Part shown: piece by piece, positions 5,243 to 64,000 of the stretch
How the letters are laid out: the number at the start of each line of letters is the position of its first letter
Numbering within the stretch: position 1 is the stretch's first letter
Assembly (NCBI GenBank): GCA_007376135.1
Contig: VMFR01000001.1
Span: 77,290 to 141,289 of the forward strand
DNA from: Parcubacteria group bacterium Gr01-1014_31
Lineage (GTDB): Bacteria > Patescibacteriota > Patescibacteriia > Buchananbacterales > GWA2-38-13
Length of the DNA stretch: 64,000 bases
Direction of reading: 5' to 3'
Notes under the pieces: generated by a model
Told to the model about the DNA's origin: nothing
Databases searched by the model: none
The model's input: only the letters and a program-made list of their open reading frames with translations
Program-made: the position numbers and the translations under genes

Positions 5243-7132
<1,890 letters not shown>

Positions 7133-21234: not shown

Positions 21235-22089
21235 TTATCCCTTGGGAACGGGTCTGGCGAGGTCCAGAGTGAGAACGACGATACCGCCGCCGGCCGCTGT
21301 CGGTATCGCCCGGCAGCGGCCGAGCCGACGGTACGCGACTGCAAGAAATTTCTGCTGCTGGTCTGCCCGCAGTTCGCAGACCACATAGCGCGGCCGTTGT
21401 CGGCGTTCAGCCAGCTGGGAAAGCAGCCGGCGATAGCAGTTCAGGCCGTCGCCTCCGGACCATAATGCCCGTTGCGGTTCATGGCGCAGGGTTTTTGCTG
21501 CGTTATTGCGCTCACCACTCGGCAGATAGGGCAGGTTGGCGACCAGGACATCCATCGCAGAACGGCGCAGCGGTTCGAGCAGGTTGCCTTTGCTGAACGC
21601 GATCTTCGCGCCCATTTTTTTGGCGTTGCGCCGCGCGATCTTCAGCGCCCCGGCGGAGCGGTCAACGGCGGAAACCACGGCGCCGGTACGATGGCGGGCG
21701 AGTGCAATGGCAATGCCTCCGGCGCCAGTGCCGATATCCGCATAGCGCACCCGCTGCTTGCCCGGCAGCAGGGCCAGTGCCGTTTCCACCACCGACTCCG
21801 TTTCGGGACGCGGTACCAGTACGTGGCGGTCAACCGCCAACGGCAGACCGAAAAATTCCTTTTCCCCCGTCAGGTAAGCGACGGGACGGCCGCGCAATCG
21901 GAACGCGATGAGTCGGGCGTAGCGGCGCGTGATGGGGCCAGGTACGTCCATTTCTGGATGGGAAAGCAGGTGGACCCGCGGATGGCCAAGGACATGGGCA
22001 AGTAGTGTTTCCGCATCCAAAAAAGGCGTCGCGAAATGTTGCGCCGCCAATCGACCAGCCGCTTTTTTCGTGAGTACGTCAACGCGCAT
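21235..22089 (-). CDS. prmC: release factor glutamine N5-methyltransferase PrmC (HemK)
   Basis: 'LVPRPETE', '[14 protein letters not shown]' and '[10 protein letters not shown]' (NPPY-type) motifs. Immediately downstream of prfA. Confidence 0.85.
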
Positions 22090-23137
22090 CAGGAGGCGCG
22101 GCGGCTGCCCGCTGCAATGCGTTAATCATTTCACCCAGGTCGCCATCCATGATTCCCTTGAGGTTGTGCCGGCTGAATCCGATGCGGTGGTCGGTCAGGC
22201 GGTCCTGGGGAAAGTTGTAGGTACGGATCTTTTCCGAGCGGTCACCGCTGCCGATCTGGGAGCGGCGGGCATCGCCGCGCTCGCGTTCCTGGCGTTCACG
22301 TTCGGCGGCAAACAGCCGCGACCGCAGCACCGCCATGGCTTTGATCTTGTTCTGCCGTTGGGAGCGCTCATCCTGGCAGGTGACGACCACCCCGGTCGGC
22401 AGGTGGGTGATACGGACTGCCGAGTCCGTGGTGTTGACGGACTGGCCGCCATGACCGCCGGCGCGAAAAACGTCGATGCGCAGGTCTTCCGTTTTGACCG
22501 CGATGTCCACTTCTTCAGCCTCCGGCAGCACGGCGACGGTAACGGTGCTGGTGTGCACGCGGCCGGCCTTTTCGGTCTCGGGGGTGCGTTGCACCCGGTG
22601 CGTACCGCTCTCATATTGCAGCTGCCCGTAGGCGCCGCGGCCCACGATCCGGAAGACCACTTCCTTAAAACCGCCGAGTTCCGTGCGCGCCACATCCATC
22701 AAGGAGACCTTCCAGCCCTGGCGCTCGGCGAAGCGGCTGTACAGGCGGAACAGCTCGGCGGCAAACAGCGCCGCCTCCTCGCCGCCGGCGCCCGCCCTGA
22801 TCTCCATAATAAGGTTGCGCCCTGCCATTGGGTCATCGGCCAGGCGCAGGACCTCCAGCCGCCGTTCCAGCACTTCACGCCGCCGCAGCAGTTCATCCAA
22901 TTCGGTGCGGGCAAGGCCGGCCAGCTCCTGGTCGTCGGAGGCGATCGCGCGCGTGGTATCGTCGATGGCGTGTTCCAGGCGCTCCAGTTCAGAGATGCCT
23001 TGTGCGCGTTCTTCCAGCAGCCGGTACTCTTGGCTTAACGCCTTCAGCCGCTCGGGTTGAGCGGTTTGTGCCGGGTCCTGCAGCATCTGCTCCAATTCGC
23101 GGAATCGCAGGAGAATCTTGTGGTCGCGCGGGTCCAT
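22079..23137 (-). CDS. prfA: peptide chain release factor 1
   Basis: '[28 protein letters not shown]' (GGQ motif). Start chosen at '[10 protein letters not shown]'; the track extends to 23164. Confidence 0.9.
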
Positions 23138-44250: not shown

Positions 44251-44252
44251 CT

Positions 44253-45308: not shown

Positions 45309-45350
45309 GCCGCACGGTACCGTGCGGCCGGTGCTCGGAGGACACCATGT

Positions 45351-46163: not shown

Positions 46164-46172
46164 TGGCAGTTT

Positions 46173-48655: not shown

Positions 48656-48674
48656 CGTTTTGTGGATAACCCCC

Positions 48675-48703
48675 TTGACAGACATCGGAAGAATCAGTAT
48701 CTT
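48675..48703 (+). promoter_or_regulatory. sigma70-like promoter for greA
   Basis: TTGACA (48675-48680), 17-nt spacer, TATCTT (48698-48703). Followed by leader hairpin atactccat/atggagtat (48722-48747). Confidence 0.5.
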
Positions 48704-48776
48704 ATCTCTCGTGCTCTAGGAATACTCCATCGCGTATGATGGAGTATGACGATAATGACTTCACTTTGGAATTTAC

Positions 48777-49247
48777 ATGAATCCCTATTTGACCCGTGAA
48801 GGGCTGGAAAAGCTGAAGAAGGAGTTGGACGAGCTCAAGTCGGTGAAACGCCAGGAGGTGATTAACCGTATCAAGGTGGCCCGCGAGCAAGGCGATCTGT
48901 CGGAAAATGCTGAGTACGCCGATGCCAAGGATGAGCAAAGCTTCATCGAGGGGCGTATCTTAGAGTTGGAAAATCTCACTAACAAGGCAGTCATCATCGA
49001 TGCGGATGTGACGCACCATGACGTGGTTTCCCTGGGGATGACCGTCACCGTAGACTGCGGCGGGCGGACTCTGCGATATACCATTGTCGGTTCCAATGAG
49101 GCCGACCCGTCGCAGGGGATGATCTCCAACGAATCACCATTGGGGCGGGCGTTTTTAGGTAAACGGGTAGGAGAAAAGGTGCAAGTTATGGTGCCAAAAG
49201 GCGAGATGGAGTGCATGATCGTGGATCTGCGCCAAGTCGCCGCGTAA
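48777..49247 (+). CDS. greA: transcription elongation factor GreA
   Basis: 'LTREGLEKLKKELDELKSVKRQEVINRIKVAREQGDLSENAEYADAKDEQ' is the canonical GreA N-terminal coiled coil. Confidence 0.9.
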   Translation: MNPYLTREGLEKLKKELDELKSVKRQEVINRIKVAREQGDLSENAEYADAKDEQSFIEGRILELENLTNKAVIIDADVTHHDVVSLGMTVTVDCGGRTLRYTIVGSNEADPSQGMISNESPLGRAFLGKRVGEKVQVMVPKGEMECMIVDLRQVAA

Positions 49248-49275
49248 CGCAGGGGTTCGGCAACTTCGTAAGATC

Positions 49276-49306
49276 CGCCGCCAGGGCTTGCCTTGGCGGT
49301 TTTTTG
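49276..49306 (+). terminator. intrinsic terminator after greA
   Basis: ccgccaggg-cttg-ccttggcgg followed by tttttt. Confidence 0.6.
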
Positions 49307-49415
49307 GGCGTTTTACCGCTTTGACGGGACCAGATTTTTTGGGTAAACTACGTGCAGCAGAAGCGGGCGTACGAGCGAGTGCGCGTACGATAGATTTGGG
49401 TATACTTTACTTCTC

Positions 49416-50891
49416 ATGGATAAAAAAAAATCCGCCCTACCCGACGAGGGAACCGTTCGGCGGAAGAAGGCAACGATGGCGATGGCGGCGGGCAGAATGC
49501 CTTACCCGCAAGTTTTTGAACGTCCGCTCAGGGTCGTCGAAGCCCGAAAAAAACCACCGGGAACAACCGGGGTGACGGTCGGGGGCAGACTGATGCGGAT
49601 TCGGACCATCGGGCAGCTAACATTCGCGGATGTCCATGATGGCAGCGGCCGTATCCAACTGCAGGCACAACGTTCGATGGCGGCAGAGGGGTACCAGGCG
49701 TTTTTGGACTTGCTGGATCCGGGAGATTTCATTTCCGTGTTCGGGGACCTGATGACCACAAAAACCGGGGAGCTGACGGTCGCGGTCCAGCGGTGGCAGC
49801 TGCTGGCCAAGGCGTTGCGCCCATTACCGGATAAATTCCACGGCCTGAAAGATCATGAACTCCGTTATCGGAAACGCTATCTTGATCTGCTGGTCAATCC
49901 GGAGGTGCGTACGCTGTTTCAGCAACGCTCAAGATTCATCACGGCGTTCCGGCGCTTCCTTGATAGTCGCGGCTTTCTCGAGGTGGAAACGCCAGTGCTG
50001 GAGCTGATTCCGGGCGGGGCGGAAGCCGAACCGTTCGTGACACACCACCGGACGCTGGATATCGATCTCTACCTTCGCATTTCGCTGGAACTGCACCTCA
50101 AACGCCTGTTGGTCGGCGGCCTGGACCGCATTTATGAGATCGGAAAAGTTTTTCGGAACGAAGGGATGTCGAACGAGCATTTGCAGGAGTTCACCATGCT
50201 TGAGTTCTACCAGGCCTACGCGGACTACGAGGATCTGCAGCAGTTTGTTCAGGAGTGCTATCGCGAGGTGTTGCAGGAAACGTTCGGGATGCAACAGTTT
50301 GAGTTCCAGGGCAAGCTATTGGATTTCCGCAAGCCATGGGCAGCGGTGGACTATACCGATGGGGTGCGGGCGGCATGCAAAGTGGATGTGGTCAAAGCAA
50401 CGGACGATGAGTTGCGCCGTGCGCTCGCACGGCGCAAGATTGCGCATGAGCCCAGCGCGGGGCGGGGCCGCTTGATTGATCTCCTGTATAAAAAGACGCT
50501 GCGGCCGTCGTTGTTGCAGCCGACGCTGGTCATCAACCATCCGGTGGCCGTCTCGCCGTTGGCCAAGCGCCATCGCGACAACCCGGAGCTGACCGAGCGC
50601 ATTACGGTGGTCGTTGCCGGCAGCGAGGTGGGGAATGGTTTTTCGGAGCTGAACGATCCTCTTGACCAGCGACAGCGTTTCGAACAGCAGGTGAAGCTGC
50701 GGGCGGCAGGCGACGCCGAGGCGCAGATGATGGACGAGGATTTCGTCGAGGCGCTGGAGCACGGTATGCCGCCGGCAGCAGGGTTTGGCGTCGGTATCGA
50801 CCGGCTGTTCATGCTGGTGACGGGCCAGCCGTCGGTGCGCGATGTCGTGCTGTTCCCGACCATGCGCCCGGACGCGCCGAAAAAGATATGA
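49416..50891 (+). CDS. lysS: lysine--tRNA ligase (class II)
   Basis: 'PYPQVFERP' N-terminal hallmark, OB-fold, class II motifs 'FRNEGMSNEHLQEFTMLEFYQAY' and 'GFGVGIDRL'. Confidence 0.9.
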   Translation: MDKKKSALPDEGTVRRKKATMAMAAGRMPYPQVFERPLRVVEARKKPPGTTGVTVGGRLMRIRTIGQLTFADVHDGSGRIQLQAQRSMAAEGYQAFLDLLDPGDFISVFGDLMTTKTGELTVAVQRWQLLAKALRPLPDKFHGLKDHELRYRKRYLDLLVNPEVRTLFQQRSRFITAFRRFLDSRGFLEVETPVLELIPGGAEAEPFVTHHRTLDIDLYLRISLELHLKRLLVGGLDRIYEIGKVFRNEGMSNEHLQEFTMLEFYQAYADYEDLQQFVQECYREVLQETFGMQQFEFQGKLLDFRKPWAAVDYTDGVRAACKVDVVKATDDELRRALARRKIAHEPSAGRGRLIDLLYKKTLRPSLLQPTLVINHPVAVSPLAKRHRDNPELTERITVVVAGSEVGNGFSELNDPLDQRQRFEQQVKLRAAGDAEAQMMDEDFVEALEHGMPPAAGFGVGIDRLFMLVTGQPSVRDVVLFPTMRPDAPKKI

Positions 50892-51316
50892 CGCGCGTGA
50901 TGGCGTTCGGCACCTTTGACCAGTTCCATCCGGGGCATTTGTATTTCCTTCAGCAAGCGCGGCGGCTCGGCGACGAATTGGTCGTGGTCGTGGCTCGCGA
51001 CCAGACGGTCGCGACGGTGAAGGGACATGCGCCGTTGCAGAGCGAAGAGCAGCGCTTGACCCAGCTTCAGCTGGTGGATGGCGTGGATCGGGCGGTCTTG
51101 GGTAATCTGGGAGATAAATACCAGGTTATCCGCGATTTTTCGCCCGACGTGATATGCCTGGGGTACGACCAGCGCGCGTTCATCGGGGATCTGCCACATT
51201 ATTTTCCTCATATCAAAATCGTTCGCGTGCCGTCGTTCCATCCGGAGCGCTATCACTCCAGCACGATGCACCAGGCGTCCTCACCGGGAGCAGGGACGCT
51301 TGAGGCCCAACGATAA
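50888..51316 (+). CDS. cytidylyltransferase-like nucleotidyltransferase (HxGH family; RibL/FAD-synthetase-like)
   Basis: 'AFGTFDQFHPGHLYFLQQAR' is an HIGH-type nucleotidyltransferase motif. 142 aa. Confidence 0.55.
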   Translation: MTRVMAFGTFDQFHPGHLYFLQQARRLGDELVVVVARDQTVATVKGHAPLQSEEQRLTQLQLVDGVDRAVLGNLGDKYQVIRDFSPDVICLGYDQRAFIGDLPHYFPHIKIVRVPSFHPERYHSSTMHQASSPGAGTLEAQR

Positions 51317-51327
51317 CCCTTTTTTGT

Positions 51328-52584
51328 ATGCTTGATCCAGCATTTATCCGAATTCACGCCAAAGAGGTGGAGGAAAACGCCGCGCGGAAAGGCGTCACCG
51401 TTGATGTCGGAAAAATTGTGCGTCTTGACGCCCAGCATCGCGACGTTCTGCGCCAGTCCGAGACCGTGCGGGCGCAGCAGAAGGCGGCTTCCACACACAA
51501 GCCGGATGCCGCAACACAGAAGAAGCTCCGTACCTTGAGCGCGGAAGCGCAGGAGTTTCGAGCGCAGGAGCGTGCCCTGGGGGAGCAATTGGATTCACTT
51601 TTGCGTCAGCTTCCGGCAATGGTCCGTCCGGACGTACCGGTCGGCAAGGATGAACGCGACAACGCAGTCGTGCGCCTCGTCGGCAAGCCGCCGTCGTTTG
51701 CATTTCCCGCCAAGGATTATCTGGCGCTGGGCGAAGCGCTTGATTTTATTGATGTAACGCGAGCCGGGAAGGTATCCGGCAGCCGATTCGGCTACCTAAA
51801 GAACGGCGCGGCCTTGCTGGAGTTCGCGCTGGTGCAGTATGCCCTTGACCTCTTGGTCCGTCAGTCCGGTTTCACGTTCATGGTGCCGCCGGTGATGATC
51901 GGTGAGGATGCCATGCGCGCGATGGGCTATCTGGAGCACGGGGGCGAGGCGGAAACCTACCATTTTCTTCAAGACCGGCTTTTCCTGGTTGGTACGTCGG
52001 AACAATCGCTCGGTCCTTACCATAAGGATGAGGTGCTCGATGCGGGGCATCTGCCGCTGCGCTACTGCGCCTTCTCGACTTGTTTCCGCCGCGAAGCCGG
52101 CGCTGCCGGCAAGGATACCCGCGGCATCCTCCGCGTTCATCAGTTCGACAAGCTGGAAATGTTCGTTTTCTGCAAGCCGGAGGATTCTGACCGCGAGCAT
52201 AATGGCCTTTTGGCACTGGAAGAGAAGCTGATGCAAGGTCTTGGGCTGGCCTATCGGGTTGTCAATTGCTGCACTGGCGAATTGGGTTTGCCGGCAGCAA
52301 AGAAGTATGACATTGAAACTTGGCTGCCGTCCCAACAGCGTTACCGCGAGACACACTCTAGTTCAAACTGCGTGGATTTCCAGGCGCGACGGCTGAATAT
52401 CCGATACAAGAATACTGCCGGCGGAAAAAACGAGTTTGTCCATACTTTGAATGGCACCGCATTCGCTATCCCGCGCATGATCGCCGTTTTGTTGGAACAC
52501 GGGCAGCAGGCGGACGGCACGATCCGCGTGCCAACACCGTTACGCCCCTATCTTCCCGGCAGTCCGGAGGTGCTAGGGAAGTAG
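51328..52584 (+). CDS. serS: serine--tRNA ligase
   Basis: N-terminal coiled-coil arm, then class II core 'FRREAGAAGKDTRGILRVHQFDKLE' and 'TLNGTAFAIPR'. Confidence 0.9.
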   Translation: MLDPAFIRIHAKEVEENAARKGVTVDVGKIVRLDAQHRDVLRQSETVRAQQKAASTHKPDAATQKKLRTLSAEAQEFRAQERALGEQLDSLLRQLPAMVRPDVPVGKDERDNAVVRLVGKPPSFAFPAKDYLALGEALDFIDVTRAGKVSGSRFGYLKNGAALLEFALVQYALDLLVRQSGFTFMVPPVMIGEDAMRAMGYLEHGGEAETYHFLQDRLFLVGTSEQSLGPYHKDEVLDAGHLPLRYCAFSTCFRREAGAAGKDTRGILRVHQFDKLEMFVFCKPEDSDREHNGLLALEEKLMQGLGLAYRVVNCCTGELGLPAAKKYDIETWLPSQQRYRETHSSSNCVDFQARRLNIRYKNTAGGKNEFVHTLNGTAFAIPRMIAVLLEHGQQADGTIRVPTPLRPYLPGSPEVLGK

Positions 52585-52586
52585 CC

Positions 52587-53516
52587 ATGGCGCCCGTGCT
52601 GCCGACGCTGCTGTTCCCGCTCCGCACCATCGCGGAGCGGTGGAAGTTGCTGCCGTACGCCACGCCGCAGACGTATCAGTTCAGTTACCGGGTGCAGGTT
52701 CGTAACCCCGCGACGTCCCGCCGGGCGGCGCTGATCGCCTGCCCCTTGCCGCCAACGTTGCCCTACCAGCAGGTTCGCGACGTGCGGTATCGGACCAAAC
52801 CAGACGGTTCCGAGGTTGAACCCCGCTACCATAACCGTTTCGATTGGTGGAACGTACAGCTGCCCGCCGGCGGGAGCCTGATGATCGGCTACGATGCGAT
52901 CGTAAGCGTGAGTCCGCGCAGTACGGAACTTGGCGCGGATCTGCCGTTGAGGCCAGGGCCGCTGGTCGGCGACCGCTACTTTGAGGTGACCAAACAAGTG
53001 AAAGAGCTGGCGGCGGTCTGCGCTCGCGGAGTGCTCGACCAGCGCGCGTACGTAGCGCGCTGTTACACCTACGTCATCGGCCATCTCCGCTATGGACGAC
53101 CGATCAGCGGATTGTACCGCGCCTCCGAAGTGCTGACCTTGCCTGAGGTGGATTGCGGCGGTTATGCCACCCTGCTGGGGGCTTTGCTGTTGGCGCGGGG
53201 CATTCCCGTCCGCCTGGTGGTCGGATTTTGGGCCGGGTACCCAGAGGCCGGCATGCATGCCTGGCTTGAATGCGACAATGGGAACGGCGCCTGGGCTGCC
53301 CTGGACCCGTCCGTTGAGCAGTTGTATCGGAACGGCCGCACGCAGAAATCTGGCCGGAGATTTTTTGTTGGCAGTGACCGGGTTGTGGTCTCTCTGGGCT
53401 CGGATCTTGAACTTCTTTTCGCCGGACGGAAGGTGTCCACACCGCTGCTGCAGCATCCTGCCGTAGCGGGGGAACTGGATGCCGCCTATGCCAACGTTAC
53501 CGCCGTATCCGCATGA
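52587..53516 (+). CDS. transglutaminase-like cysteine protease domain protein
   Basis: 'EVDCGGYATLLGALLLARGIPVRLVVGFWAG...HAWLE' is a Cys-His-Asp transglutaminase-like core. Confidence 0.55.
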   Translation: MAPVLPTLLFPLRTIAERWKLLPYATPQTYQFSYRVQVRNPATSRRAALIACPLPPTLPYQQVRDVRYRTKPDGSEVEPRYHNRFDWWNVQLPAGGSLMIGYDAIVSVSPRSTELGADLPLRPGPLVGDRYFEVTKQVKELAAVCARGVLDQRAYVARCYTYVIGHLRYGRPISGLYRASEVLTLPEVDCGGYATLLGALLLARGIPVRLVVGFWAGYPEAGMHAWLECDNGNGAWAALDPSVEQLYRNGRTQKSGRRFFVGSDRVVVSLGSDLELLFAGRKVSTPLLQHPAVAGELDAAYANVTAVSA

Positions 53517-54760
53517 GTAACATGATCGCCATTGCGCTCGGCCCGAACTACCAGTCTGACGACGTGGCGCTTAGCCTCCGTCTCCTTTTTCAGCCGTGGA
53601 AATGGGTGCGAGGGAATTCGGTCGTTGAACTGGAACAGGCCTTCGCGCGTGAAATGTCGCTGCAAAACGCAGTCGCGTTCGGGACCGGTCGGGCGGCGTT
53701 AGCGGCTTGTCTTTCGGTGCGCGGCATTTCCACCGGCGACGAGGTACTGCTCCAGGCCTTTACTTGTGTCGCGGTTCCTAACGCCGTACGCAGCGTCGGG
53801 GCGGTGCCGGTTTTTGTTGACATCGATGTGAGCACCTACACGATGGACCCGCAGGCGTTAGCCGCACGATGCACATCCAAAACACGCGCCATCGTGGTAC
53901 AGCATACGTTCGGGTATCCGGCAGACATGGACGCGATCATGGAGTTTGCGCGCGCCCGCGGGCTGTTCGTTATCGAAGATTGCGCCCATGCCATGGGGAG
54001 TGCGTACCGTGGTCGGCCGGTGGGGGCACTGGGGGACGTTGCGGTGTTCAGTTTTGGCCGCGATAAGCCCCTTTCGCCAGTGTTCGGGGGAATGGCGGTC
54101 GCGCAGGATTCAGCGTTCGTCGAAAAATTGCGCCACTATCGCGATGAGCGACTTTCTCCCGCGCCGGCCGTCTGGGTGGCGCAGCAGCTCCTTCATGCGC
54201 CGTTGACCGCGGCCGCGGGAGTCGCACACCGGTGGCGGACATTCGGGAAGGTATTTTTATTCCTGGTCAAGCGGTTGCGGTTGGTGGCGTTGGCGGTCGC
54301 TCCCGAAGAACGGCGGGGGAGGGTCGCTCGGTTTGGCCATTACCGCATGGCGAATGCCTTGGCCGTGTTGGCGTTGTGGCAGCTACAGAAGATCAAGAGT
54401 TTTTCTGACCATCGTCGCGCGATCGCCGGATACTACCGACAAATGCTCGCAGGGACCGGCGCAGAACTGCCGCCGCCGGATGGGGAAGAGCGGAGCGTGG
54501 CCTGGCTGCGCTTTCCGTTGCGGGTACGAGACCCCAAGCGGGTTATGACCATTGCCCGCGCCGCCAACATCTATCTCGGCGATTGGTATCGGCCCGTTGT
54601 TGCTCCTTCGGGGGTTGTTCTTTCCGCGGTCGGGTACCGGGAAGGGAGCTGCCCGCGGGCTGAACACGCGTCAGAGATGGCCATCAACTTGCCGACGCAT
54701 CAACGCGTTTCGGCGCGAGACGCCGCACGTATCATCTCGGTAATTACGCCGGCGTTATGA
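53513..54760 (+). CDS. DegT/DnrJ/EryC1/StrS-family PLP-dependent sugar aminotransferase
   Basis: 'VVELEQAFAREMSLQNAVAFGTGRAALAACL' and 'SFGRDKPLS' (Lys in SxxK context) are typical of DegT aminotransferases. Confidence 0.7.
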   Translation: MSNMIAIALGPNYQSDDVALSLRLLFQPWKWVRGNSVVELEQAFAREMSLQNAVAFGTGRAALAACLSVRGISTGDEVLLQAFTCVAVPNAVRSVGAVPVFVDIDVSTYTMDPQALAARCTSKTRAIVVQHTFGYPADMDAIMEFARARGLFVIEDCAHAMGSAYRGRPVGALGDVAVFSFGRDKPLSPVFGGMAVAQDSAFVEKLRHYRDERLSPAPAVWVAQQLLHAPLTAAAGVAHRWRTFGKVFLFLVKRLRLVALAVAPEERRGRVARFGHYRMANALAVLALWQLQKIKSFSDHRRAIAGYYRQMLAGTGAELPPPDGEERSVAWLRFPLRVRDPKRVMTIARAANIYLGDWYRPVVAPSGVVLSAVGYREGSCPRAEHASEMAINLPTHQRVSARDAARIISVITPAL

Positions 54761-55791
54761 CCCTTCCCGCGTTCACATTCCACGAGGTCAAAGAGCGTTC
54801 GGTATGGGACGAGTTCGTGCGCAAGGTTGATCCGCATACCTTCCTCCAGTCGTGGCCCTGGGGCGAGTTCAATCGGCGGCAGGGTAACGACGTGTCGAGG
54901 TGGCAGGTTCATGCGGGTGGTACCGGCGGAACTCCGGTTGCGGCGATCCAGGTGGTACATATTCGGGCGCGTCGCGGCCGATTCCTCTTTTGCCCCCACG
55001 GTCCGATCCTGGCCGACCAAGGCGACGCAGTCGCGCTGAAGGCCGCGCTGGGTTTCCTGGTGGAGCAGGGGAGAGGGTGCGATTCCGATTTTGTCCGGGT
55101 CAGCAGTCTGCAACCGGACACCGATGTCCAGCGCCGGCTATTCCGCCAATCCGGGTTTCGTCCGGCGCCAATCCACATGCACCCGGAGCTTGCCTGGCTC
55201 CTGGACGTTCGTCCCGATGCGGCGGCGCTCCTGGCGGGTATGAGGAAGACCATGCGCCAACTTATCCGCAAGTCCCAGCAGCTCGGGATCACCGTCCGGG
55301 CAACGACCGCGGCGGCGGACGCCGAAATATTTTTGGATCTTTACCGTGGTACGGCCCAGCGCCAGCATTTTGTCGCTTTTACCGACCGTTACGTGGCCGA
55401 TGAGTTGGCCGCCTTCGGCGACGACGTGCGCGTCCTATTGGCGGAATACCACGGTACCGTGCTGGCCGGGGCCGTAGTCGTTTTTTTCGGTCAGTCGGCG
55501 TTCTATCACCATGGCGCGTCGCTGCCGCAAAGCAGCAATCTTCCGGCGGCGTATCTCCTACAATGGGAAGCGATCCGGCTTGCGAAGCTTCGGGGCTGTC
55601 GGTGGTATAATTTCTGGGGGATAGCTCCGCCGAATCGCCCCAGCCATCCCTGGACCGGTTTAACGGCCTTCAAACAGGGTTTTGGCGGTTTTAGCGAGCC
55701 GTATCTTCATGCCCAGGATCACGTGCTGCGGCCGCGGTATTGGTTGAACTACGCCGTAGAATGCGCGCGTCGCGCGCGGCGCGGCCTGTAG
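54757..55791 (+). CDS. FemAB/FemX-family (GNAT-fold) peptidyl transferase-like protein
   Basis: 'FLQSWPWGEF' is the N-terminal Fem signature. 344 aa with tandem GNAT-like halves. Confidence 0.6.
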   Translation: MTLPAFTFHEVKERSVWDEFVRKVDPHTFLQSWPWGEFNRRQGNDVSRWQVHAGGTGGTPVAAIQVVHIRARRGRFLFCPHGPILADQGDAVALKAALGFLVEQGRGCDSDFVRVSSLQPDTDVQRRLFRQSGFRPAPIHMHPELAWLLDVRPDAAALLAGMRKTMRQLIRKSQQLGITVRATTAAADAEIFLDLYRGTAQRQHFVAFTDRYVADELAAFGDDVRVLLAEYHGTVLAGAVVVFFGQSAFYHHGASLPQSSNLPAAYLLQWEAIRLAKLRGCRWYNFWGIAPPNRPSHPWTGLTAFKQGFGGFSEPYLHAQDHVLRPRYWLNYAVECARRARRGL

Positions 55792-55809
55792 CGCGCAGAG
55801 GAAGCCCAT

Positions 55810-56673
55810 ATGCGACGTCATTACGATTTTGCGCGTAAAACCTACCTTCGACCCCAGCGGCGGCGTTCACAGCAGGCAAGCCGCATGGTGCGCCGGCGAT
55901 GGTTGCAGGCCCTTGGGTTGGCGTCAGTTTTCGTGCTGCTCCTGAACATCGGCGGACGGGCGGCGCACTGGTCGATTTCGGCGGTGCATGTCAAGGGAGC
56001 GAAATTCATCGAAGCCAGCCAGGTGGCGGCAATGGTTCGCGAGCAGATACAGCAACGGCGTTGGTTGGTCTTGCCGCAACGCGTCAAGTCGTTTTTTGAT
56101 ACGATGGCGCTTCGGCGTACTTTGGAGCAGCAGTTCCCATTCGCTCGTTGGAGCGTGGATAAGGACGGCTCCGGGGCAGTGCTCGTCACCATCCAGGAGC
56201 GGCAGGCGCAGCTGGTTTGGGTGGCCGACGGAAAAACGTACTACGTGGATGCTCAGGGGCTGTTGTTCTCCGATGTGCGCGCCGCAGAGAGCAGCGCGGA
56301 TACTGCCGGTGTGATCCGCCACGACGCTTTGCTCGAGAATTTACCCGTTGTTCTGGACGAATCAAAAACTGCCGCCAGCCTGGGAACGGCTGCAGTTACG
56401 CCGGCGACCGTCGCGTTCATCCGTTCCTTGGCGGTGGCACTGTCGGACGGGACGATCGCGCTGCCCGCCGCCGTCGTGAGCTACCGTTACGACCCGGCGA
56501 CGTATCGCCTGGCGCTGGAGACGGTACTCGGGTATGACATTTACTTCGCAGTGAATCAGCCCCTGAGCGATCAGATGGAAAAACTGAAAGTCGCGCTCCA
56601 GCAAGGTATCGCCCGACGCACGAATCTGCACTATATTGACGTCCGGTTCGGGCAGAAGATCTTTTACCAGTAA
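55810..56673 (+). CDS. ftsQ: cell division protein FtsQ/DivIB-like (POTRA)
   Basis: Basic N-terminus, a single TM, then a POTRA-like region 'ISAVHVKGAKFIEASQVAAMV'. Confidence 0.55.
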   Translation: MRRHYDFARKTYLRPQRRRSQQASRMVRRRWLQALGLASVFVLLLNIGGRAAHWSISAVHVKGAKFIEASQVAAMVREQIQQRRWLVLPQRVKSFFDTMALRRTLEQQFPFARWSVDKDGSGAVLVTIQERQAQLVWVADGKTYYVDAQGLLFSDVRAAESSADTAGVIRHDALLENLPVVLDESKTAASLGTAAVTPATVAFIRSLAVALSDGTIALPAAVVSYRYDPATYRLALETVLGYDIYFAVNQPLSDQMEKLKVALQQGIARRTNLHYIDVRFGQKIFYQ

Positions 56674-56683
56674 GGCGCGGCTG

Positions 56684-57685
56684 TTACTTTTTGAGCGGGT
56701 GGAAGCGGCGGTGCGTGGTTTCCGCGTAGCGGTCCGAGGCGTGTACGTAGCGGGTAGTCGTATCCAGCGATTCGTGGCCCAAAAGTATCTGGATCGCCGC
56801 TGGATTGGCGCCGCTCTCGGCCAGATACGTCGCAAAGGCATGGCGGATGGAGTGGGCCGAGAGCGGGACGTTGATGCCGAGCAGTTCGCGGTAGTGTTTT
56901 ACTTTTGCCTGAACGTAATTGGGGGAAATTTTTTTATCCTTTTTCCCGGCATTGCGACCGCGGTACGGCACGAACAAAAAGGGTGACGGGCTGGTTCCGC
57001 GCTGTCGCTGATAGTTCTCCAGGTGCCGCTTCGCACGGTCGGTGAGGTACACGAACCGTTCTTTTTTCCCCTTGCCGCGGATGAAGATCCTGCCCTGGCG
57101 GTCGATCTGCTCCAGCCGCAGGCCGATGAGTTCCGAGATACGCATGCCAGTGGAAAAGAGAACTTCTAACATCGCCCGATTGCGCGCTGCGGCACTTTTG
57201 TTCTTTTCGAATTTTGATGGCGCTTCGATCAGGCGCACAATATCCTCGAATTCACCCACGCGCGGGTGCTTGCGCTCGGTCTTGACCAGCGTCACCGCAT
57301 CCGGGGGCACGGGCGAGGGGTGGTCGTTGTCGATCAGGAATTTAAGGTAGCTGCGGAGGGCCGAGAGCATCCGGTTGATTGAAAAGCTGACTAACCGCGA
57401 TTGTCCATCCTGTGATCCCGGCGTCTTTCGGTCTTGGGAGGTAAGATACGCCTTGTAATAAAGAATAATTTTTTTGTCGACGCGATCAAATGGTATGTTG
57501 CTTCCTCCTAAGAACGCCTGGAACACTTCCAGATCCCGTTCGTAGTTATATACAGTTTCTTGCGAGTAGTTGTCCGTCTGGAGGTGCAACAGGTAGTCAT
57601 CCAAATGGGGGAGGGCAGTCACGGCGTTTTTGGCGCTCATAGAGGCATTCGCGTGTGAATAATTAAAACATCGTTCCGTCATCAA
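56684..57685 (-). CDS. tyrosine site-specific recombinase (XerC/XerD-like integrase)
   Basis: C-terminus 'HSIRHAFATYLAESGANPAAIQILLGHESLDTTTRYVH' has the catalytic R..HxxR..Y. N-terminal SAM-like domain 'ETVYNYERDLEVFQAFL'. Confidence 0.8.
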   Translation of the reverse strand: MMTERCFNYSHANASMSAKNAVTALPHLDDYLLHLQTDNYSQETVYNYERDLEVFQAFLGGSNIPFDRVDKKIILYYKAYLTSQDRKTPGSQDGQSRLVSFSINRMLSALRSYLKFLIDNDHPSPVPPDAVTLVKTERKHPRVGEFEDIVRLIEAPSKFEKNKSAAARNRAMLEVLFSTGMRISELIGLRLEQIDRQGRIFIRGKGKKERFVYLTDRAKRHLENYQRQRGTSPSPFLFVPYRGRNAGKKDKKISPNYVQAKVKHYRELLGINVPLSAHSIRHAFATYLAESGANPAAIQILLGHESLDTTTRYVHASDRYAETTHRRFHPLKK

Positions 57686-57773
57686 AAAAAGATTCGATCA
57701 ATGTCCGCGCAGTACGTCAACAAGTTTCAGAATGATAGGACGTCAGGAGGTGCAGGTAGAAAGTCCCTTAGTA

Positions 57774-57786
57774 GGGGGGGGGGGGG
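57774..57786. repeat. homopolymeric G13 (C13 on minus) tract
   Basis: 'tagtaggggggggggggtgagg'. Lies about 90 nt upstream of the recombinase start on the minus strand, within a ~30% GC region. Confidence 0.85.
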
Positions 57787-57874
57787 TGAGGCGAAGGAAG
57801 AGGTGAATTATTGTCTCTCCGTATTTTAAGTGAGTGTAAGAGATATTATACTCATTAACTTATTTCATTTTATA

Positions 57875-57908
57875 TTGACGGCTAAGGTGCCGTCAATGAT
57901 GTTTTTTT
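57875..57908 (+). terminator. intrinsic terminator-like hairpin in AT-rich islet
   Basis: ttgacggc-taaggt-gccgtcaa followed by tgatgttttttt. Confidence 0.5.
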
Positions 57909-58102
57909 GGCTTATTTTAGCCAACTGTGGATAACTTTAGTCCCCCGATTTCTATCCACTATTTTTATTATTATTGTGTTTATACAATGTTGGACGCCCA
58001 AATGATTATTTGAAATAAGAATTTTAAAAAAACATTTCAGATCAAGATCTTCCACTTTCTATTTTCTATGCCCGCTTCCGTTCTTATTTTTTCTTATACT
58101 AC

Positions 58103-58516
58103 TTACCTATAGACCTTACCAAAGTAAAACGTTCTCAAATACGAGAGCGCCAGAAACGCCAGTGCCGCCTGGATGATATCGATGAGGCTAATGCCGTCTT
58201 TTGAGGCGAGCGTCGGCACCACGACTATGGCCATGGCCGTTAAAAACGATATGGCATCGTGCAGCATGGCATCCCGGTAGCTGATGACGATAGTCTCGGT
58301 CTCTTCTCCCTGGACCCTGTGCCGCCGGATGATCGATCGGTCGCGGCTGAATGCCAAGATCATTCCCGCTAAAAATATCAGTGGCGGCGTGATATTACGA
58401 ATGATTTCTAAGGCGCCCTCAAGCTGATGGTAATAGGTTATGTAGAGGATAAAACCCGCGATCAGGTTGATCCACAGTAAGCCGCGGATGATATCGGCGG
58501 GCTTTTGGTCCGGCAT
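58103..58516 (-). CDS. hypothetical membrane protein (lower GC)
   Basis: 137 aa with about 4 TM helices. GC near 48%. Confidence 0.4.
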   Translation of the reverse strand: MPDQKPADIIRGLLWINLIAGFILYITYYHQLEGALEIIRNITPPLIFLAGMILAFSRDRSIIRRHRVQGEETETIVISYRDAMLHDAISFLTAMAIVVVPTLASKDGISLIDIIQAALAFLALSYLRTFYFGKVYR

Positions 58517-58535
58517 AGATTAAGCGTCGCAAAAT

Positions 58536-59783
58536 AATTTATGGCAGGTATTCCAATGGGTTGGCCGGAATGCTATTGACGCGGACTTCGAAATGCAAAT
58601 GGGCACCGGTGGTGAGCGGGCCAGCTCCGCGAGTTCCCGGAGCGCCGCCGGAACGCGCGATCACCTGTCCCTTAGTCACGAATTGTTTTTCCTGGACATC
58701 GATACGCTAAACGTGGCCGTAGACGGTCGCGATGCCGTCGTTGTGGATGAGCATCACATAGCTGTAGCCACGCGCTCCCCCATCCTTCACCTTCGCTACA
58801 TATCCCGCCTCGGCGGCGTACACTTTTGATCCTTGTGGCGTACGGATGTCGATCGCTGGATGTTCAAAGATGTGACGGTACGGGTATTCGGGGTCGCGAA
58901 AATATGCGGTGATGTAGCGGCCGTCGGTCGGCCAGCGCAGGCGGGGCTTTCCGAGCGCATTAAAACGTTCCGACTCCTGGCGTCGCTCAAGTTCGGCCCT
59001 GATCTTCTTTTCGATGCCAACGATGTCGCTGTTGAGCTGCTGCTGTTCGAGTTTCAACTCCTGAACGTAGGACGAGAATTTTTTCTCTGAACGCTCGGTT
59101 TCCTTCAGCAGGTTCGCCTGATGTGCCGAGTGCTCCGTCAGGTCCTGCCGCTGATCTTCAAGCGTTGTTTTATACTGCTCTTGTTCGGTGCGTTTCGCGA
59201 CGAGCGCTTGCTGCTGTAACTCTAGTTCAGCCTGGAGATTTTTGAGTTTTTGGAGCGCTTGCTGTAAATGTTCCTGAACGTCCTGAAGGCGCTGGTAGTA
59301 ATCGAAAAAATCGGAAAAGGTTTCGTTGGTCACCATGATCTCCAGGTAACTGACCTGGTCGTTCTGGTAGATCAGTTGGAGCAACTGGCGCAGGCGTACG
59401 CGCTGTTCATCGATCTTCTCCCCCTGCGTTTCGATGTCTCCGGCGGTGCGCTGGATCTCCAGATTGGTTTTCGCGATTTGTTTTTTGGTCAGTTCGATAT
59501 CGAGCTCCTTCTTGGCGATATCGTTTTCCAGGAGTCGGAGTTGACCGCGCAACGTCGCCGATTCCTTTTGGGATTCCTTGATGCGCTGCTGGTACAGCTC
59601 GATGCGTTTTTTGATCTTTTCGATCTCCGATTTTCTATCTTCGATCTCCTGGTTATACCCGCTGACCGGGTCATTGGCTGCGACCGCCGGCAAGGATAGT
59701 AATATCAGCACCGTCAGGCAGGTCAAAAAAGCGCTCCCCCACCCCCACCAGCGGCGTCGCTTTATGTCGAGTCTACCCCCCAT
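58536..59783 (-). pseudogene. M23 peptidase (EnvC-like, N-terminal coiled coil) interrupted by an in-frame TAG
   Basis: The minus-strand ORF ends '...IATVYGHV' at TAG (58707-58709). The same frame continues '[55 protein letters not shown]', which carries the M23 HxH active-site block. Confidence 0.6.
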
Positions 59784-59792
59784 AGGAGAACG

Positions 59793-61223
59793 TTAGCTGA
59801 GAGCATTCGCCGCGCGCTTGAGACGCGCGACCGAGGTAGTTTTGCCGAGCACCGGCAGGATCTCGAACGGTCCCGGGCTGGCACGGCGGCCGCTCAGTGC
59901 CACGCGCAGCGGCCAAAGCGTTTCGCCATTGCCCCATTTCCGCTCCTCCATCATGCTTTTCACCGCGGTTTGCAGTCCGTCGGCGGTAAGGCGGTCGTCC
60001 GGGAGCCCCTCCAGCAGTCCGGTGAGTGCCATGAGTACGGTTTTGCAGTCTGCCGCCGTTTGGCTGCGCCAGGGTAGCATCGCGGGGTCCAACACGGGGT
60101 CGTCGAAGAAATATTGAACCAGGGGCGGGAGTTCGTCCAGACGTTTCAGGCGGCTCTGTTCGAGCGCGATCACACGTTGCACGAAGTCGCGCGGCGTTGA
60201 CGGTTTGAGTAGTCCAGCGGTTTGTAATACCGGGTAAGCCAATGCGACCAGTTGGTCGGTCGGTAGGTGGCGCAGATACATGCCGTTGATCCAATCCAGT
60301 TTTTCACGGTTAAATACCGCACCGCTTTTATTGACTCGTCCAAATGAGAATTTTTCGATCAATTCTTGAAGGCTGAACACCTCCTGCTCAGTGCCGGGGT
60401 TCCATCCCAGGAGCGCCACGAAATTCAGCAGGGCGTCGGGCAGATAGCCGGCTTCGCGGTACTCGTCCACGGCGACGTCGCCGGTACGCTTGGAAAGTTT
60501 GGAACGGTCCGGATTCAAAAGTAACGGCAGGTGAGCGAACGCCGGCGGCGTCCAGTCAAGGGCCTGGTAGAGTAAGATATGTTTTGGCATCGAGGGCAGC
60601 CACTCTTCACCCCGGACGACGTGCGTGATCTTCATTTCGTGATCATCAACGACCGACGCCAAATGGTACGTCGGGAAACCGTCCGTCTTCATCAGGATCT
60701 GGTCATCCAGAGTTGCCGCGTTGAAAAGAATGCGTCCGCGGATCAGGTCATCGCAGGCGATCGTCCCTACCTGTGGCATCGAGAAGCGGATTACCGACGG
60801 TTCCCCGGACGCCGGCGCGGTGTCGGTGCGCCCGCGACAGCGGCCGTCGTAGCGCATGGGAAGCTTTTTGGCCTCCTGGTCCCGTCGAAGCGATTCAAGC
60901 CGTTCCGCGGTGCAGGTGCAGCGATAGGCGTGTCCGGAGGCCAGCAGTTGTTCGGCGTAGCGCCGGTACAACGGCAGCCGCTCGGATTGGGTGACGGGTT
61001 CGTGGTCGAACGCAAGTCCGGCCCAACGCAAATTTTGGATGATATTCTCGACCGCGCCGGGCACTAGCCGTGCTTGGTCGGTGTCTTCAATGCGCAGCAA
61101 AAATTCGCCCTGCTGCTGGCGAGCATACAAAAAATTGTAGAGCGCGGTTCGCAGGCCGCCGATGTGCAGCTTGCCGGTCGGACTGGGCGAAAATCTAGTG
61201 CGTACGTTGGCCATGGGCGTCAA
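59793..61223 (-). CDS. gltX: glutamate--tRNA ligase
   Basis: 'RFSPSPTGKLHIGGLRTALYNFLYA' (HIGH) and 'KLSKR' (KMSKS-type) motifs. 476 aa. Confidence 0.9.
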   Translation of the reverse strand: MTPMANVRTRFSPSPTGKLHIGGLRTALYNFLYARQQQGEFLLRIEDTDQARLVPGAVENIIQNLRWAGLAFDHEPVTQSERLPLYRRYAEQLLASGHAYRCTCTAERLESLRRDQEAKKLPMRYDGRCRGRTDTAPASGEPSVIRFSMPQVGTIACDDLIRGRILFNAATLDDQILMKTDGFPTYHLASVVDDHEMKITHVVRGEEWLPSMPKHILLYQALDWTPPAFAHLPLLLNPDRSKLSKRTGDVAVDEYREAGYLPDALLNFVALLGWNPGTEQEVFSLQELIEKFSFGRVNKSGAVFNREKLDWINGMYLRHLPTDQLVALAYPVLQTAGLLKPSTPRDFVQRVIALEQSRLKRLDELPPLVQYFFDDPVLDPAMLPWRSQTAADCKTVLMALTGLLEGLPDDRLTADGLQTAVKSMMEERKWGNGETLWPLRVALSGRRASPGPFEILPVLGKTTSVARLKRAANALS

Positions 61224-62010
61224 TCAAAGCGTAAAAAGGGAAGAGGCAAACAGCAGCGATGATGCGCGGGAAACGGGACGGTTGGCGTCCGAGGCGGTAA
61301 AGCCATTCGAAGCCGTAGTTGCTGAGCCAGCGCGGCGCGCGCGGTATTCTTCCGGACCAATAATCGAACGCTCCACCCACGCCGATGGCCACCCGAATCC
61401 CGGGCAGATGCATCCGTTGGGCGTAGAGCAGGCGTTCCTGTCTCCCGTGCCCGAGCGCTACCAGCAGTACGTCAGGATGCGCCGACCGGATGCGGTCCAG
61501 GATCTCGCGTTTCGGATGTTCCGGGTCGTCAATGGTACCCCCGTCGTCCACGCCCACGATCCTCAACCCCGGGATCTGGGTGCGTAGGTTTTGCGCGGCG
61601 GCCGCGGCAACGCCCTCGCCCGCTCCCAGGAGGTACACCGCGCTGCCAAGAGACGCCGCTTCTCCGAGCAGGACATATGCCGCGTCAACGCCTGCGATGC
61701 GGATGCGGATGTGCTGGCGGAGCAGCCGGCCAATGGCGACAAGACCGTATCCGTCGGGAAGTGCCAGATCAGCCGCCTGTAATGCGGTGCGTAATCGTAG
61801 GTCGTTGCGGCTGGCCAGGAGCATCTCCGGGTTGGGGGTGGCTACCAGGCGGAAACGGTCACCGTTGAGGCAGCTGCGAAAATATCCGCGCAGTTCAGCC
61901 ATGTCCAGCTGGTGGAGTGGTATGCCGCAAAGGACTCCGGCAGGCTGCAGAGCGCTTACCTTAGCGGCTGCCGAGGGGGAATTCTGCGAGTTTGGCATAC
62001 TCTGGACCAT
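61195..62010 (-). CDS. WecB/TagA/CpsF-family (GT26) glycosyltransferase (start uncertain)
   Basis: 'LVATPNPEML', 'DGYGLV', 'YLLGAGEGVAAAAAQNL' and 'VGVDDG' are typical of WecG/TagA. Overlaps the gltX start. Confidence 0.7.
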   Translation of the reverse strand: MVQSMPNSQNSPSAAAKVSALQPAGVLCGIPLHQLDMAELRGYFRSCLNGDRFRLVATPNPEMLLASRNDLRLRTALQAADLALPDGYGLVAIGRLLRQHIRIRIAGVDAAYVLLGEAASLGSAVYLLGAGEGVAAAAAQNLRTQIPGLRIVGVDDGGTIDDPEHPKREILDRIRSAHPDVLLVALGHGRQERLLYAQRMHLPGIRVAIGVGGAFDYWSGRIPRAPRWLSNYGFEWLYRLGRQPSRFPRIIAAVCLFPFYALIDAHGQRTH

Positions 62011-62521
62011 CAGCGGTCAAAATGCTCTGATACAACGTCAGCATGGTAATGAGCTGTGGATTTGTATCGGTAGCAGAAAGCTCCGGAAGTTTGCCGACAG
62101 TACTTTTGACCCGTCCGAGCGTCACGTGCGGCAGCCATTGGTGCACGTCGCGCGGCAGTCCGAGGCTGGCAATGGTCGGCAGGAACGCACGACGGAGCCG
62201 AATGAGGTTTCCCGCAGGGTCGCCGCAGGGCAGAATGATGACCCTCGCCGGACCGGCAGGCGGCAACGTCGCCAACTTTTCCAGCGTTACCGCGAACGGC
62301 GAAGTACACCCGGCAATTTCTCGTCCTTGCGCGGCCATCGCGTTCGCCGCTTCACTGCCCACGTCGTTTCCCAAGAAGCGGAGGGTCAGATGCAGCTGGG
62401 CGGGATCAACCCAGCGGACCTTCCCTCGTGGAATTTGACCGGAAAGACGCTTGATCAAGTCAGCGGCAGATTGTACGCCTTTCAGCGGTAGCTCTGCGGC
62501 CAGGAAGCAACGCCAACCCAT
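61961..62521 (-). CDS. thpR: RNA 2',3'-cyclic phosphodiesterase (2H family, ThpR/LigT)
   Basis: Two HxT/S motifs: 'LHLTLRFLG' and 'PHVTLGRV'. Confidence 0.7.
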   Translation of the reverse strand: MGWRCFLAAELPLKGVQSAADLIKRLSGQIPRGKVRWVDPAQLHLTLRFLGNDVGSEAANAMAAQGREIAGCTSPFAVTLEKLATLPPAGPARVIILPCGDPAGNLIRLRRAFLPTIASLGLPRDVHQWLPHVTLGRVKSTVGKLPELSATDTNPQLITMLTLYQSILTADGPEYAKLAEFPLGSR

Positions 62522-62614
62522 AACTTAAAATAAAAATGTGCTAACAAGTGTAAAAATTATACCATGATTATTGGTTTTTCGCAATCCCGATACCGGAGGA
62601 GTTGCGGCAAGCTG

Positions 62615-62623
62615 CATGCTATA
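62615..62623 (+). promoter_or_regulatory. extended -10 element TGcTATACT upstream of LigB-like gene
   Basis: Same TGnTATACT form as the gap promoter. Sits in an AT-rich divergent intergenic region. Confidence 0.35.
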
Positions 62624-62652
62624 CTAAGAAGGCCGTTCACGGTCCCAGGACT

Positions 62653-63453
62653 ATGCCAATAGTGTTTTCCGCCATTGCCTCTCACTCCCCCCTTCTTTTG
62701 GAGCGCGTGGGAAAATCGAATCGACGGCGTCTGAAAACGACCCTCGAATCGTATGCTGAGCTCGAGCGGTTGTTGTATGCCGCCAAACCCGAAACGTTGG
62801 CCGTGATCTCGCCGCACGGTGACGTGTTGCCGGATGTGTTTAGCATCGGCCTGGCGCACCGTTTCACTGCCGATTTTTCGGCGTTCGGAGATTTTAGTGC
62901 ACAGCCGGAGTGGCGTGCAGATCCGGTCACGGCGCAGTCTTTACGGACGGCTGACGAGTCCTCGCGCCAGGTGCAGCCGCATATCTTAGGTACCCAGCGA
63001 ACGCTTGACCACGGCATCACGGTGCCGGCGGTACTGCTGACTCCGCACCTACCGAGTATTGCGCTTTTGCCGTTCCGTACCGCCGGGCTGGCGGCCACCG
63101 CCCATTGGCGGTTCGGCCAGCATATTGGTAGCGGCCTGCGCACCTCGCCGCGAAGGGTGGCGGTGATCGCTTCAGCCGATCTTTCGCACCGGTTGTCAAA
63201 AACATCACCCGCAGGTTTTTCACCGCAGGCAGCCGCTTTCGACCGTCAGCTTTTGGAATACGTTCGACGGGGTGATGCCGCCTCGGTCATCGGCCTGGAT
63301 CCGGCGTTGGCGGCGGCAGTCGCCTGCTGCGGCCATTTGCCGATCGCGTTCTTATTGGGGATCTTGGACGGCATGAATGTCACCCCATCCATCCTTAGCT
63401 ACGAGGGGCCGTTCGGCGTCGGGCATCTCATGGCCGCCTACCGTTTCGGCTAA
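62653..63453 (+). CDS. class III extradiol dioxygenase subunit B-like / MEMO1-family (AmmeMemoRadiSam system protein B-like)
   Basis: 'PIVFSAIASHSPLL...AVISPHGDVL' and 'DHGITVP' are typical of LigB/DODA/Memo-fold proteins. Confidence 0.55.
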   Translation: MPIVFSAIASHSPLLLERVGKSNRRRLKTTLESYAELERLLYAAKPETLAVISPHGDVLPDVFSIGLAHRFTADFSAFGDFSAQPEWRADPVTAQSLRTADESSRQVQPHILGTQRTLDHGITVPAVLLTPHLPSIALLPFRTAGLAATAHWRFGQHIGSGLRTSPRRVAVIASADLSHRLSKTSPAGFSPQAAAFDRQLLEYVRRGDAASVIGLDPALAAAVACCGHLPIAFLLGILDGMNVTPSILSYEGPFGVGHLMAAYRFG

Positions 63454-63459
63454 GTCGCT

Positions 63460-64000
63460 ATGGACCAAGCAATAGATGAGGGACGCACCATCGCCGAGCT
63501 GGTGCCGCTGCTGCGGTTGCCGCGCGGGCTCGGTCTTTTTGATTATCGCGTCCCGCCCGGCCTCAACGCCATCGTTCCCGGGCAATTGGTTGATGCCACG
63601 TTCCGCGGACGGCTTTGCCCGGCCGTCGTTTGGCGCCTGAAGCCGGAACCGCAGCCGTCGGCCTATCGCTATCAGCAGGTGCATGCGTTGCTTGTGCCTG
63701 AACCTTGGTTGACGGATGGGCAGCGGGTACTTGCCGAGTGGATGGCCGGCTACTATGCGCAATCGCTCGCCCTGGTGGTGAAGGCAATGACCCCAACTCC
63801 GACGTTACGTCCCCAAGATCTTCCTCCCCTTCCTCCGTTAGCCAACAATCACGCCGGTACCGGTTTTGTCGTCCCGACAGGATTTGCGGCGCTGCTGCAA
63901 CAGGATGAACTTTCGCTGCCCGCTCTGGCGGCGACGGTTGCAGCGGCATTTCGGGCCGACCGGCAGGCACTCCTGATCGTGCCCGAGGAAAACGACATCG
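63460..64000 (+). CDS. priA: primosomal protein N' (PriA), N-terminal part (continues past window end)
   Basis: 'IAELVPLLRLPRGLGLFDYRVPPGLNAIVPGQLVDATFRGRLCPAVVWRL' is the PriA N-terminal 3' DNA-binding domain. Confidence 0.7.
   Translation, partial: MDQAIDEGRTIAELVPLLRLPRGLGLFDYRVPPGLNAIVPGQLVDATFRGRLCPAVVWRLKPEPQPSAYRYQQVHALLVPEPWLTDGQRVLAEWMAGYYAQSLALVVKAMTPTPTLRPQDLPPLPPLANNHAGTGFVVPTGFAALLQQDELSLPALAATVAAAFRADRQALLIVPEENDI

Follow-up and report, generated by a model that had tools for sequence, protein, structure and literature searches.

A private single-base change behind the in-frame amber codon of a Parcubacteria M23 peptidase gene: assembly error or very young mutation

Introduction

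Why should a gene for a cell-wall hydrolase end at an amber codon when the same reading frame goes on, undisturbed, to encode the rest of the catalytic domain? The question is posed by a minus-strand gene in the window, by which we mean the whole 64-kb stretch (64,000 nucleotides) of Parcubacteria group bacterium Gr01-1014_31 DNA that was analysed. An initial annotation, made from the letters of the sequence, described an EnvC-like M23 peptidase gene broken by a single TAG, and offered as explanations a recent nonsense mutation, a sequencing or assembly error, or programmed readthrough. We find that the TAG is a private single-base substitution in one deposited assembly, TCG to TAG on the coding strand and G to T at window position 58708 on the plus strand. 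It goes back either to an assembly error or to a mutation of very recent date, and not to an unusual genetic code, because another assembly of the same strain lacks the changed base.

The truncated product is already in GenBank, as the 358-aa product is identical to TSC76957.1, 'MAG: peptidase M23 [Parcubacteria group bacterium Gr01-1014_31]', encoded by a contig of 539,480 bp. The phenomenon is an ordinary one, and the gene is of a known kind. Where does the deposit come from? Run SRR8863434, contigs of which are compared with the window below, is part of BioProject PRJNA512237. PRJNA512237 corresponds to the study of groundwater in Ohio by Danczak et al. (2019), with wells in Athens, Greene and Licking Counties; its pipeline consisted of HiSeq 2500 sequencing, idba_ud assembly at default settings and DAS Tool binning, and polishing or curation is absent from the study's description (PMC6730927). 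From the name of the MAG, taken together with the identical contigs, we infer that Gr01-1014_31 belongs to PRJNA512237 and that 'Gr01-1014' denotes Greene, October 2014. The MAG is probably an uncurated, unpolished idba_ud bin.

Results and Discussion

An open frame interrupted at codon 359

The full-length gene, for a peptidoglycan hydrolase with a coiled coil and an M23 domain, occupies 58539..59783 on the minus strand, which also carries all of its features given below, and is broken at codon 359. From its ATG start the open reading frame (58707..59783) runs for 358 codons to a TAG at 58709-58707, in which the variant base is window position 58708 (T on the plus strand, A on the coding strand). 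Past the TAG there are 55 further in-frame sense codons and then a TAA at 58541-58539; the 56 codons of the initial annotation are reached only if the final stop is counted. Its central observation, of a single in-frame amber codon inside a coiled-coil and M23 gene, between the catalytic His357 and the HxH block, is confirmed from the sequence.

Read through, the gene specifies 414 aa (414 codons plus the TAA). Intact 414-aa orthologs match this product with 98% identity and 100% coverage, and therefore the continuation past the TAG is not there by chance. It equals an intact protein from another assembly (P0121) at every residue except 359, where the TAG substitutes for Ser359 of the motif 'YGHVS'.

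What does the stop remove? In the read-through product the Peptidase_M23 family (PF01551) matches residues 308-409 (58557..58862), at profile positions 3-96 of 96 and with 80.2 bits (cut-off 28.7), and a match above the cut-off was obtained with the TAG read through only. Because the match covers residues 308-409 while the TAG is codon 359, the M23 (LytM) domain straddles the stop. On the 5' side of the stop are the HxxxD motif (H308...D312; 58848..58862), whose His and Asp we take, by established knowledge of the M23/LytM enzymes, to be two zinc ligands, and the catalytic His, His357 of 'YGHVS' (58713..58715), two codons before the TAG. On the 3' side is HLH (H395 and H397; 58593..58601), the HxH motif with the third zinc ligand, which is absent from the deposited 358-aa product. 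All five residues are encoded in the window DNA and are unchanged across 79 orthologs, and the three motifs are likewise invariant in an alignment of 19. The remnant beyond the stop, made up of the 55 sense codons and the TAA (58539..58706), is undecayed and includes the HxH and the final four beta-strands predicted for the M23 domain.

An AlphaFold2 model made from 79 orthologs (mean pLDDT 84.9) predicts an N-terminal hydrophobic helix, very long helices at residues 39-142 and 156-275, and a beta-rich domain at 290-407. The hydrophobic segment, read from the sequence as residues 16-35 (...LTCLTVLILLSLPAVAAN; 59679..59738) and with a predicted helix at 16-29, is a putative signal peptide or membrane anchor. 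The two long helices make up a predicted coiled-coil hairpin (58959..59669) with pLDDT mostly 90-98. When the M23 domain was compared alone with Csd1 and ShyA by Foldseek, the rmsd was 2.4-3.7 A. The TAG falls within predicted strand 358-361, and the 358-aa product is without four of the ten predicted M23 strands. Because those four strands and the HxH zinc ligand are missing, the 358-aa product, if it is made at all, should be inactive. The intact protein, to judge from its sequence, looks like an active endopeptidase, because every metal ligand is kept, unlike in EnvC. No NCBIfam equivalog cut-off is reached by the window protein.

Serine at codon 359 in the relatives

Is the serine a general feature of this protein family? 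A homolog search was made in a collection of 5.8 billion proteins, of which 8,000 candidates were scored, and 1,731 of these are homologs at E <= 0.001; where a source name is given, the label is Patescibacteria or a related candidate group. The top match is an intact 414-aa protein with 98% identity and 100% coverage, and the orthologs span 42-98% identity to the window protein. The position taken by the TAG is Ser in 79 of 79 aligned orthologs, and an alignment of 19 orthologs likewise has Ser there. At the DNA level, three ENA contigs from separate samples, which share the gene order and have 96% nucleotide identity to the window, have TCA at codon 359, and an NCBI MAG contig with 82% identity has TCG. 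The ortholog comparison suggested in the initial annotation thus gave a sense serine codon (TCG or TCA) in all five related contigs, the fifth being the ENA contig of the following section.

Truncated orthologs with a diverged downstream frame were not seen among the close and distant orthologs, which are single polypeptides of ~400-430 aa. When the window is set against one of the 96% contigs and the 82% contig, the polarisable changes of the window lineage in the last 55 codons are all synonymous. A separate oddity is found in Parcubacteria GW2011_GWA2_38_13 (LBUD01000040.1), where the ortholog is split across two frames near residue 260-280 (positions 6001-7144 of our locus L027). That locus has 15 N's, which are probably a scaffold gap. 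If the run of N's sits at the frame change, this would be a second assembly artefact breaking the same gene family.

An otherwise identical assembly with an intact gene

The changed base is revealed by ENA assembly ERZ27284378, whose source may be the same library as the MAG or a sister sample. Contig k139_328889 (280 kb) of this assembly aligns with window 57774..64000 over 6,227 nt with a single mismatch. The mismatch is window base 58708: on the coding strand the window reads A and k139_328889 reads C, so that TAG stands against TCG (Ser). The M23 gene is called intact in k139_328889, with 414 aa (8734-9978 of our locus L005). The 55 codons 3' of the stop show no difference from this intact allele, and the contig also encodes the neighbouring 137-aa membrane protein with identical sequence.

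How much of the window can be compared in this way? Another contig of that ENA assembly, k139_137563, agrees with window 41328-57791 at 100.000% identity, and Logan contigs of SRR8863434 are 100% identical over 19733-40986, 41328-55748, 55797-57786 and 59752-62514. Other assemblies thus cover ~44 kb of the window, from 19733 on, and the nonsense base is the sole difference. In our judgement, one mismatch in ~44 kb is within the usual disagreement between assemblers.

Logan contig SRR8863434_645117 stops at window 59752, just within the 5' end of the gene, and SRR8863434_566257 stops at 57786. When the C-terminal 145 residues were used as a protein query, no Logan fragment of near-identical sequence came back. 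Neither the GTDB-representative contigs nor the JGI metagenome contigs contain an exact match to a 59-mer that surrounds the codon and has N for the variant base, and the strain is therefore absent from both. We note that a homopolymer of 13 G's lies at 57774-57786 (plus strand), in the spacer upstream of a recombinase gene, and that both ENA contigs and one Logan contig terminate at it, with run lengths of at least 18 in k139_328889 (L005) and at least 22 in locus L008. This run could be a weak point of Illumina sequencing or assembly, or it could be truly variable in length.

Assembly error or young mutation?

How did the T at 58708 come about? Of the explanations first put forward, two survive: a nonsense mutation of very recent date, and an error of sequencing or assembly. 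The two readings predict an intact downstream frame alike. On balance we lean towards an error of the consensus or base call, or a captured minority allele, as the origin of the T, in preference to a dominant nonsense allele, and consider this somewhat probable. The preference arises because the gene and the residue are invariant in the family and because an otherwise identical assembly has the sense codon. The source population carries the intact 414-aa gene; in the scenario we favor, the T would be unrepresentative of most of that population, an error or minority allele kept in a probably unpolished idba_ud bin. The true gene would then be intact, and its product would be secreted or anchored in the membrane and would combine a coiled-coil hairpin with an M23 domain competent for catalysis. 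This protein is a homolog of the septal hydrolases and activators that are coupled to FtsEX. One might object that Illumina consensus substitution errors are uncommon away from repeats, and the local context here, GTT TAG CGT, contains neither a repeat nor a homopolymer.

The same benign context lends weight to the main alternative, in which a genuine and very young loss-of-function allele (C to A on the coding strand) is dominant in the sampled strain, so that the gene is a newborn pseudogene. The consensus as deposited does have the TAG, and GenBank lists the resulting product. Among spontaneous (oxidative) mutations G-to-T is common, and an undecayed downstream sequence with no other difference in ~44 kb would fit an extremely recent event. 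On this account the intact allele would persist in the same aquifer population, and either other hydrolases or a host-associated lifestyle would cover cell separation, or the allele would be mildly deleterious and transient. Set against the proposal are the conservation of the gene, with its 1,731 homologs among the 8,000 candidates scored and its orthologs at 42-98% identity, the invariance of Ser359 and of the lost HxH motif, and the TCG of the otherwise identical genome. A profile search of the window for a compensating paralog found only the gene itself, so that the window is without a second copy. One would also give a low prior to the dominant knock-out of a conserved, division-related hydrolase in a reduced genome of ~0.5 Mb. 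We regard the young allele as a serious possibility, though not the one on which we would wager.

A narrower proposition is that the TAG allele truly exists and is abundant in a single groundwater sample from Greene County, as a natural knock-out segregating in a clonal Patescibacteria population; this we think rather unlikely. If the allele is real, then the M23 hydrolase may be dispensable or complemented, or weak near-cognate readthrough of UAG-C may give enough enzyme. If it is dominant as well, it would be a small natural experiment on the dispensability of an FtsEX-type M23 hydrolase in an ultra-small bacterium.

TAG is an ordinary stop in this organism

Might the codon be read through by design? 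Programmed recoding, by which a suppressor tRNA, pyrrolysine or near-cognate decoding of UAG at codon 359 would yield the 414-aa enzyme, has in its favor that the frame 3' of the stop is fully intact. In addition the stop is followed by C (TAG C), which is a relatively weak termination context in E. coli. The rest of the evidence contradicts it. The window encodes peptide chain release factor 1, the release factor that reads UAG, in prfA (22079..23137, minus strand), which adjoins prmC. The prfA product exceeds the equivalog cut-offs of NCBIfam NF001859 (465.5 bits, cut-off 400) and TIGR00019 (452.6 bits, cut-off 423.25), and carries the GGQ motif and the P-x-T tripeptide (as PET). Among 41 genes called on window-identical DNA, the stops are TAA in 22, TAG in 10 and TGA in 9, and the genes ended by TAG include those for EF-Ts, MreB, PBP2, SerRS and a FemAB-family protein. 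The initial annotation was right, then, that TAG is a normal stop elsewhere in the window, and also right in its example, dnaK (5243..7132), which terminates in TAG. Two genes that end with TAA in the window have orthologs in the 82% identical NCBI contig that end with TAG at the very same position.

Nor do the tRNAs or the relatives offer help to recoding. ARAGORN found only tRNA-Glu(CTC) and tRNA-Arg(CCG) genes in the window, and no suppressor or pyrrolysine tRNA with a CUA anticodon within these 64 kb. The relatives have TCG or TCA at the codon in all five contigs, one of which is identical at every other base, and a degenerate DNA pattern for orthologs with TAG at codon 359 had 0 matches in the JGI metagenome contigs. 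No other interrupted gene occurs in the ~44 kb compared. The organism uses the standard bacterial code, and TAG is therefore an ordinary stop. Given RF1, the TAG terminators, the TAA/TAG swaps, the window tRNAs and the Ser codons of the relatives, recoding is effectively excluded, the scan for a tRNA-CUA having covered the window part of a genome of ~0.54 Mb; we consider it very improbable. As for a natural truncation or split gene, in which the 358-aa form, possibly with a 46-aa C-terminal peptide from a GTG-initiated frame at 58679 (58539..58679, in the same frame), would be normal in the lineage, it is scarcely credible when close and distant orthologs are all single polypeptides, the break is inside a predicted beta-strand of the M23 core and an otherwise identical strain has a sense codon.

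The biological importance of the TAG is small. The practical lesson is that in-frame stops in unpolished metagenome bins should be compared with independent assemblies before recoding is invoked, and we flag TSC76957.1 (358 aa) as a cut-down version of a 414-aa enzyme.

The surroundings of the gene

The initial annotation also pointed to a recombinase gene and an AT-rich islet beside the stop. We considered these as a mobile element that disrupted the gene, and rejected the idea: the block wecG-gltX-M23-TM137-spacer-integrase is syntenic in relatives, with the recombinase and the AT-rich spacer in place at 96% and at 82% nucleotide identity. Because of this synteny the recombinase and spacer mark no mobile element, and they bear no relation to the stop. 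Rfam scans, of the window at gathering thresholds and of the AT-rich spacer in E-value mode, gave one tRNA and a sub-threshold frnS only.

Two neighbors of the M23 gene deserve mention for their own sake. The 137-aa predicted membrane protein (58103-58516, minus strand) has no family match and always follows the M23 gene in the five related contigs; it may be a functional partner of the M23 protein. Farther along, the intergenic patch 57820-57952 is 87.5% identical to that of the NCBI MAG contig, higher than the flanking coding DNA, and contains a terminator-like hairpin (57873-57898, plus strand) followed by seven T's. No Rfam family was matched by the patch, the best being frnS, sub-threshold at E = 0.34; the patch may encode a small transcript or have a regulatory role.

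Several features elsewhere in the window are also of interest. After the enolase gene there are tandem genes for 2,3-bisphosphoglycerate-independent phosphoglycerate mutase (iPGM_N plus Metalloenzyme; 30990-32585 and 32594-34168, plus strand), and a duplicated glycolytic iPGM gene is unexpected for a genome of ~0.5 Mb. An open reading frame of 476 to 506 aa (34169-35689, plus strand), without Pfam or NCBIfam match, is flanked by the second iPGM gene and by two glycosyltransferase genes. The window has two MreB paralogs (37560-38585 and 44253-45308, plus strand) and also encodes MreC, MreD, PBP2 and a RodA/FtsW-family protein (45351-46163, 46206-48655 and 17671-18834), which together make a complete elongasome, or rod-shape, set in a Patescibacteria genome. 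Finally, two long open reading frames (123-809 and 4017-5087, plus strand) have unusually high first-position GC (0.84-0.86), and the second of them has no Pfam match. These may encode Gly/Ala-rich proteins or may be wrong-frame calls.

Relation to known systems

How does the case compare with what is known? As a sequence anomaly it resembles the single-base consensus errors and young nonsense alleles of MAGs, with the same isolated base difference, the same premature stop in a conserved gene and the same undecayed downstream sequence; no feature distinguishes the window case from ordinary examples of these.

As to the protein, the description 'EnvC-like' holds for the architecture. EnvC is a murein hydrolase activator held by FtsEX; it docks on the periplasmic domain of FtsX, and the ATPase activity of FtsE regulates it. 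The E. coli and V. cholerae proteins (PDB 6TPI, E. coli EnvC bound to FtsX; 8TZK and 8TZL, the V. cholerae FtsE/FtsX/EnvC complex) have in common with the window protein an N-terminal anchor or signal, a long coiled-coil hairpin of two helices and, at the C-terminus, a LytM/M23 domain. Among full-length sequence matches in the PDB, the top one is to 8tzk_E (residues 20-413 against 23-380, E = 6.7e-15). By fold, Foldseek ranks 8tzl_E and 6tpi_A first, over 386-392 aligned columns and with TM-scores of 0.28-0.32, which are low because the coiled-coil geometry does not superpose. The description fails at the active site and at the level of the family model. The LytM domain of EnvC no longer has its metal ligands and serves to activate amidases, whereas the window gene encodes H308, D312, H357, H395 and H397; where the window protein has HLHFE, the aligned V. 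cholerae EnvC reads ALYFE. The NCBIfam EnvC model NF008644 gives 42.7 bits, far below its cut-off of 270. A further difference from EnvC is that ftsEX does not adjoin the window gene, and the annotated parts of the window showed no ftsEX.

A second comparison is with the FtsEX-linked coiled-coil M23 proteins of Bacillota and other phyla, with the gene order ftsE-ftsX-M23-ctp, which have the same coiled-coil and M23 layout and are full-length homologs at 24-29% identity over residues ~20-413. In 79 species-representative homolog loci, FtsE is encoded upstream in 36 and FtsX in 34 (same strand, within 4.5 kb), an S41 C-terminal processing protease follows in 30, and representative neighbors exceed the FtsE, FtsX and prc cut-offs; almost all the loci with ftsEX neighbors are outside Patescibacteria. 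Unlike the genes of ftsE-ftsX-M23-ctp loci, the window gene and that of 9-10 of the 13 Patescibacteria loci follow wecG-gltX and are away from ftsX, one locus (L020) having an FtsE-like gene nearby. Since the gene is not next to ftsX in the window or in most Patescibacteria loci, it is homology that suggests FtsEX coupling in this organism.

PcsB of Streptococcus pneumoniae, a coiled-coil and CHAP protein under FtsEX control, offers a third comparison. Many of the orthologs match CC_PcsB (PF24568) in their coiled-coil region, and the window protein scores 16.3 bits, below the cut-off of 27. PcsB and the window protein follow the same logic, that of a coiled-coil arm bearing a peptidoglycan hydrolase domain, and differ in the catalytic domain itself, which is CHAP in PcsB and M23 in the window protein.
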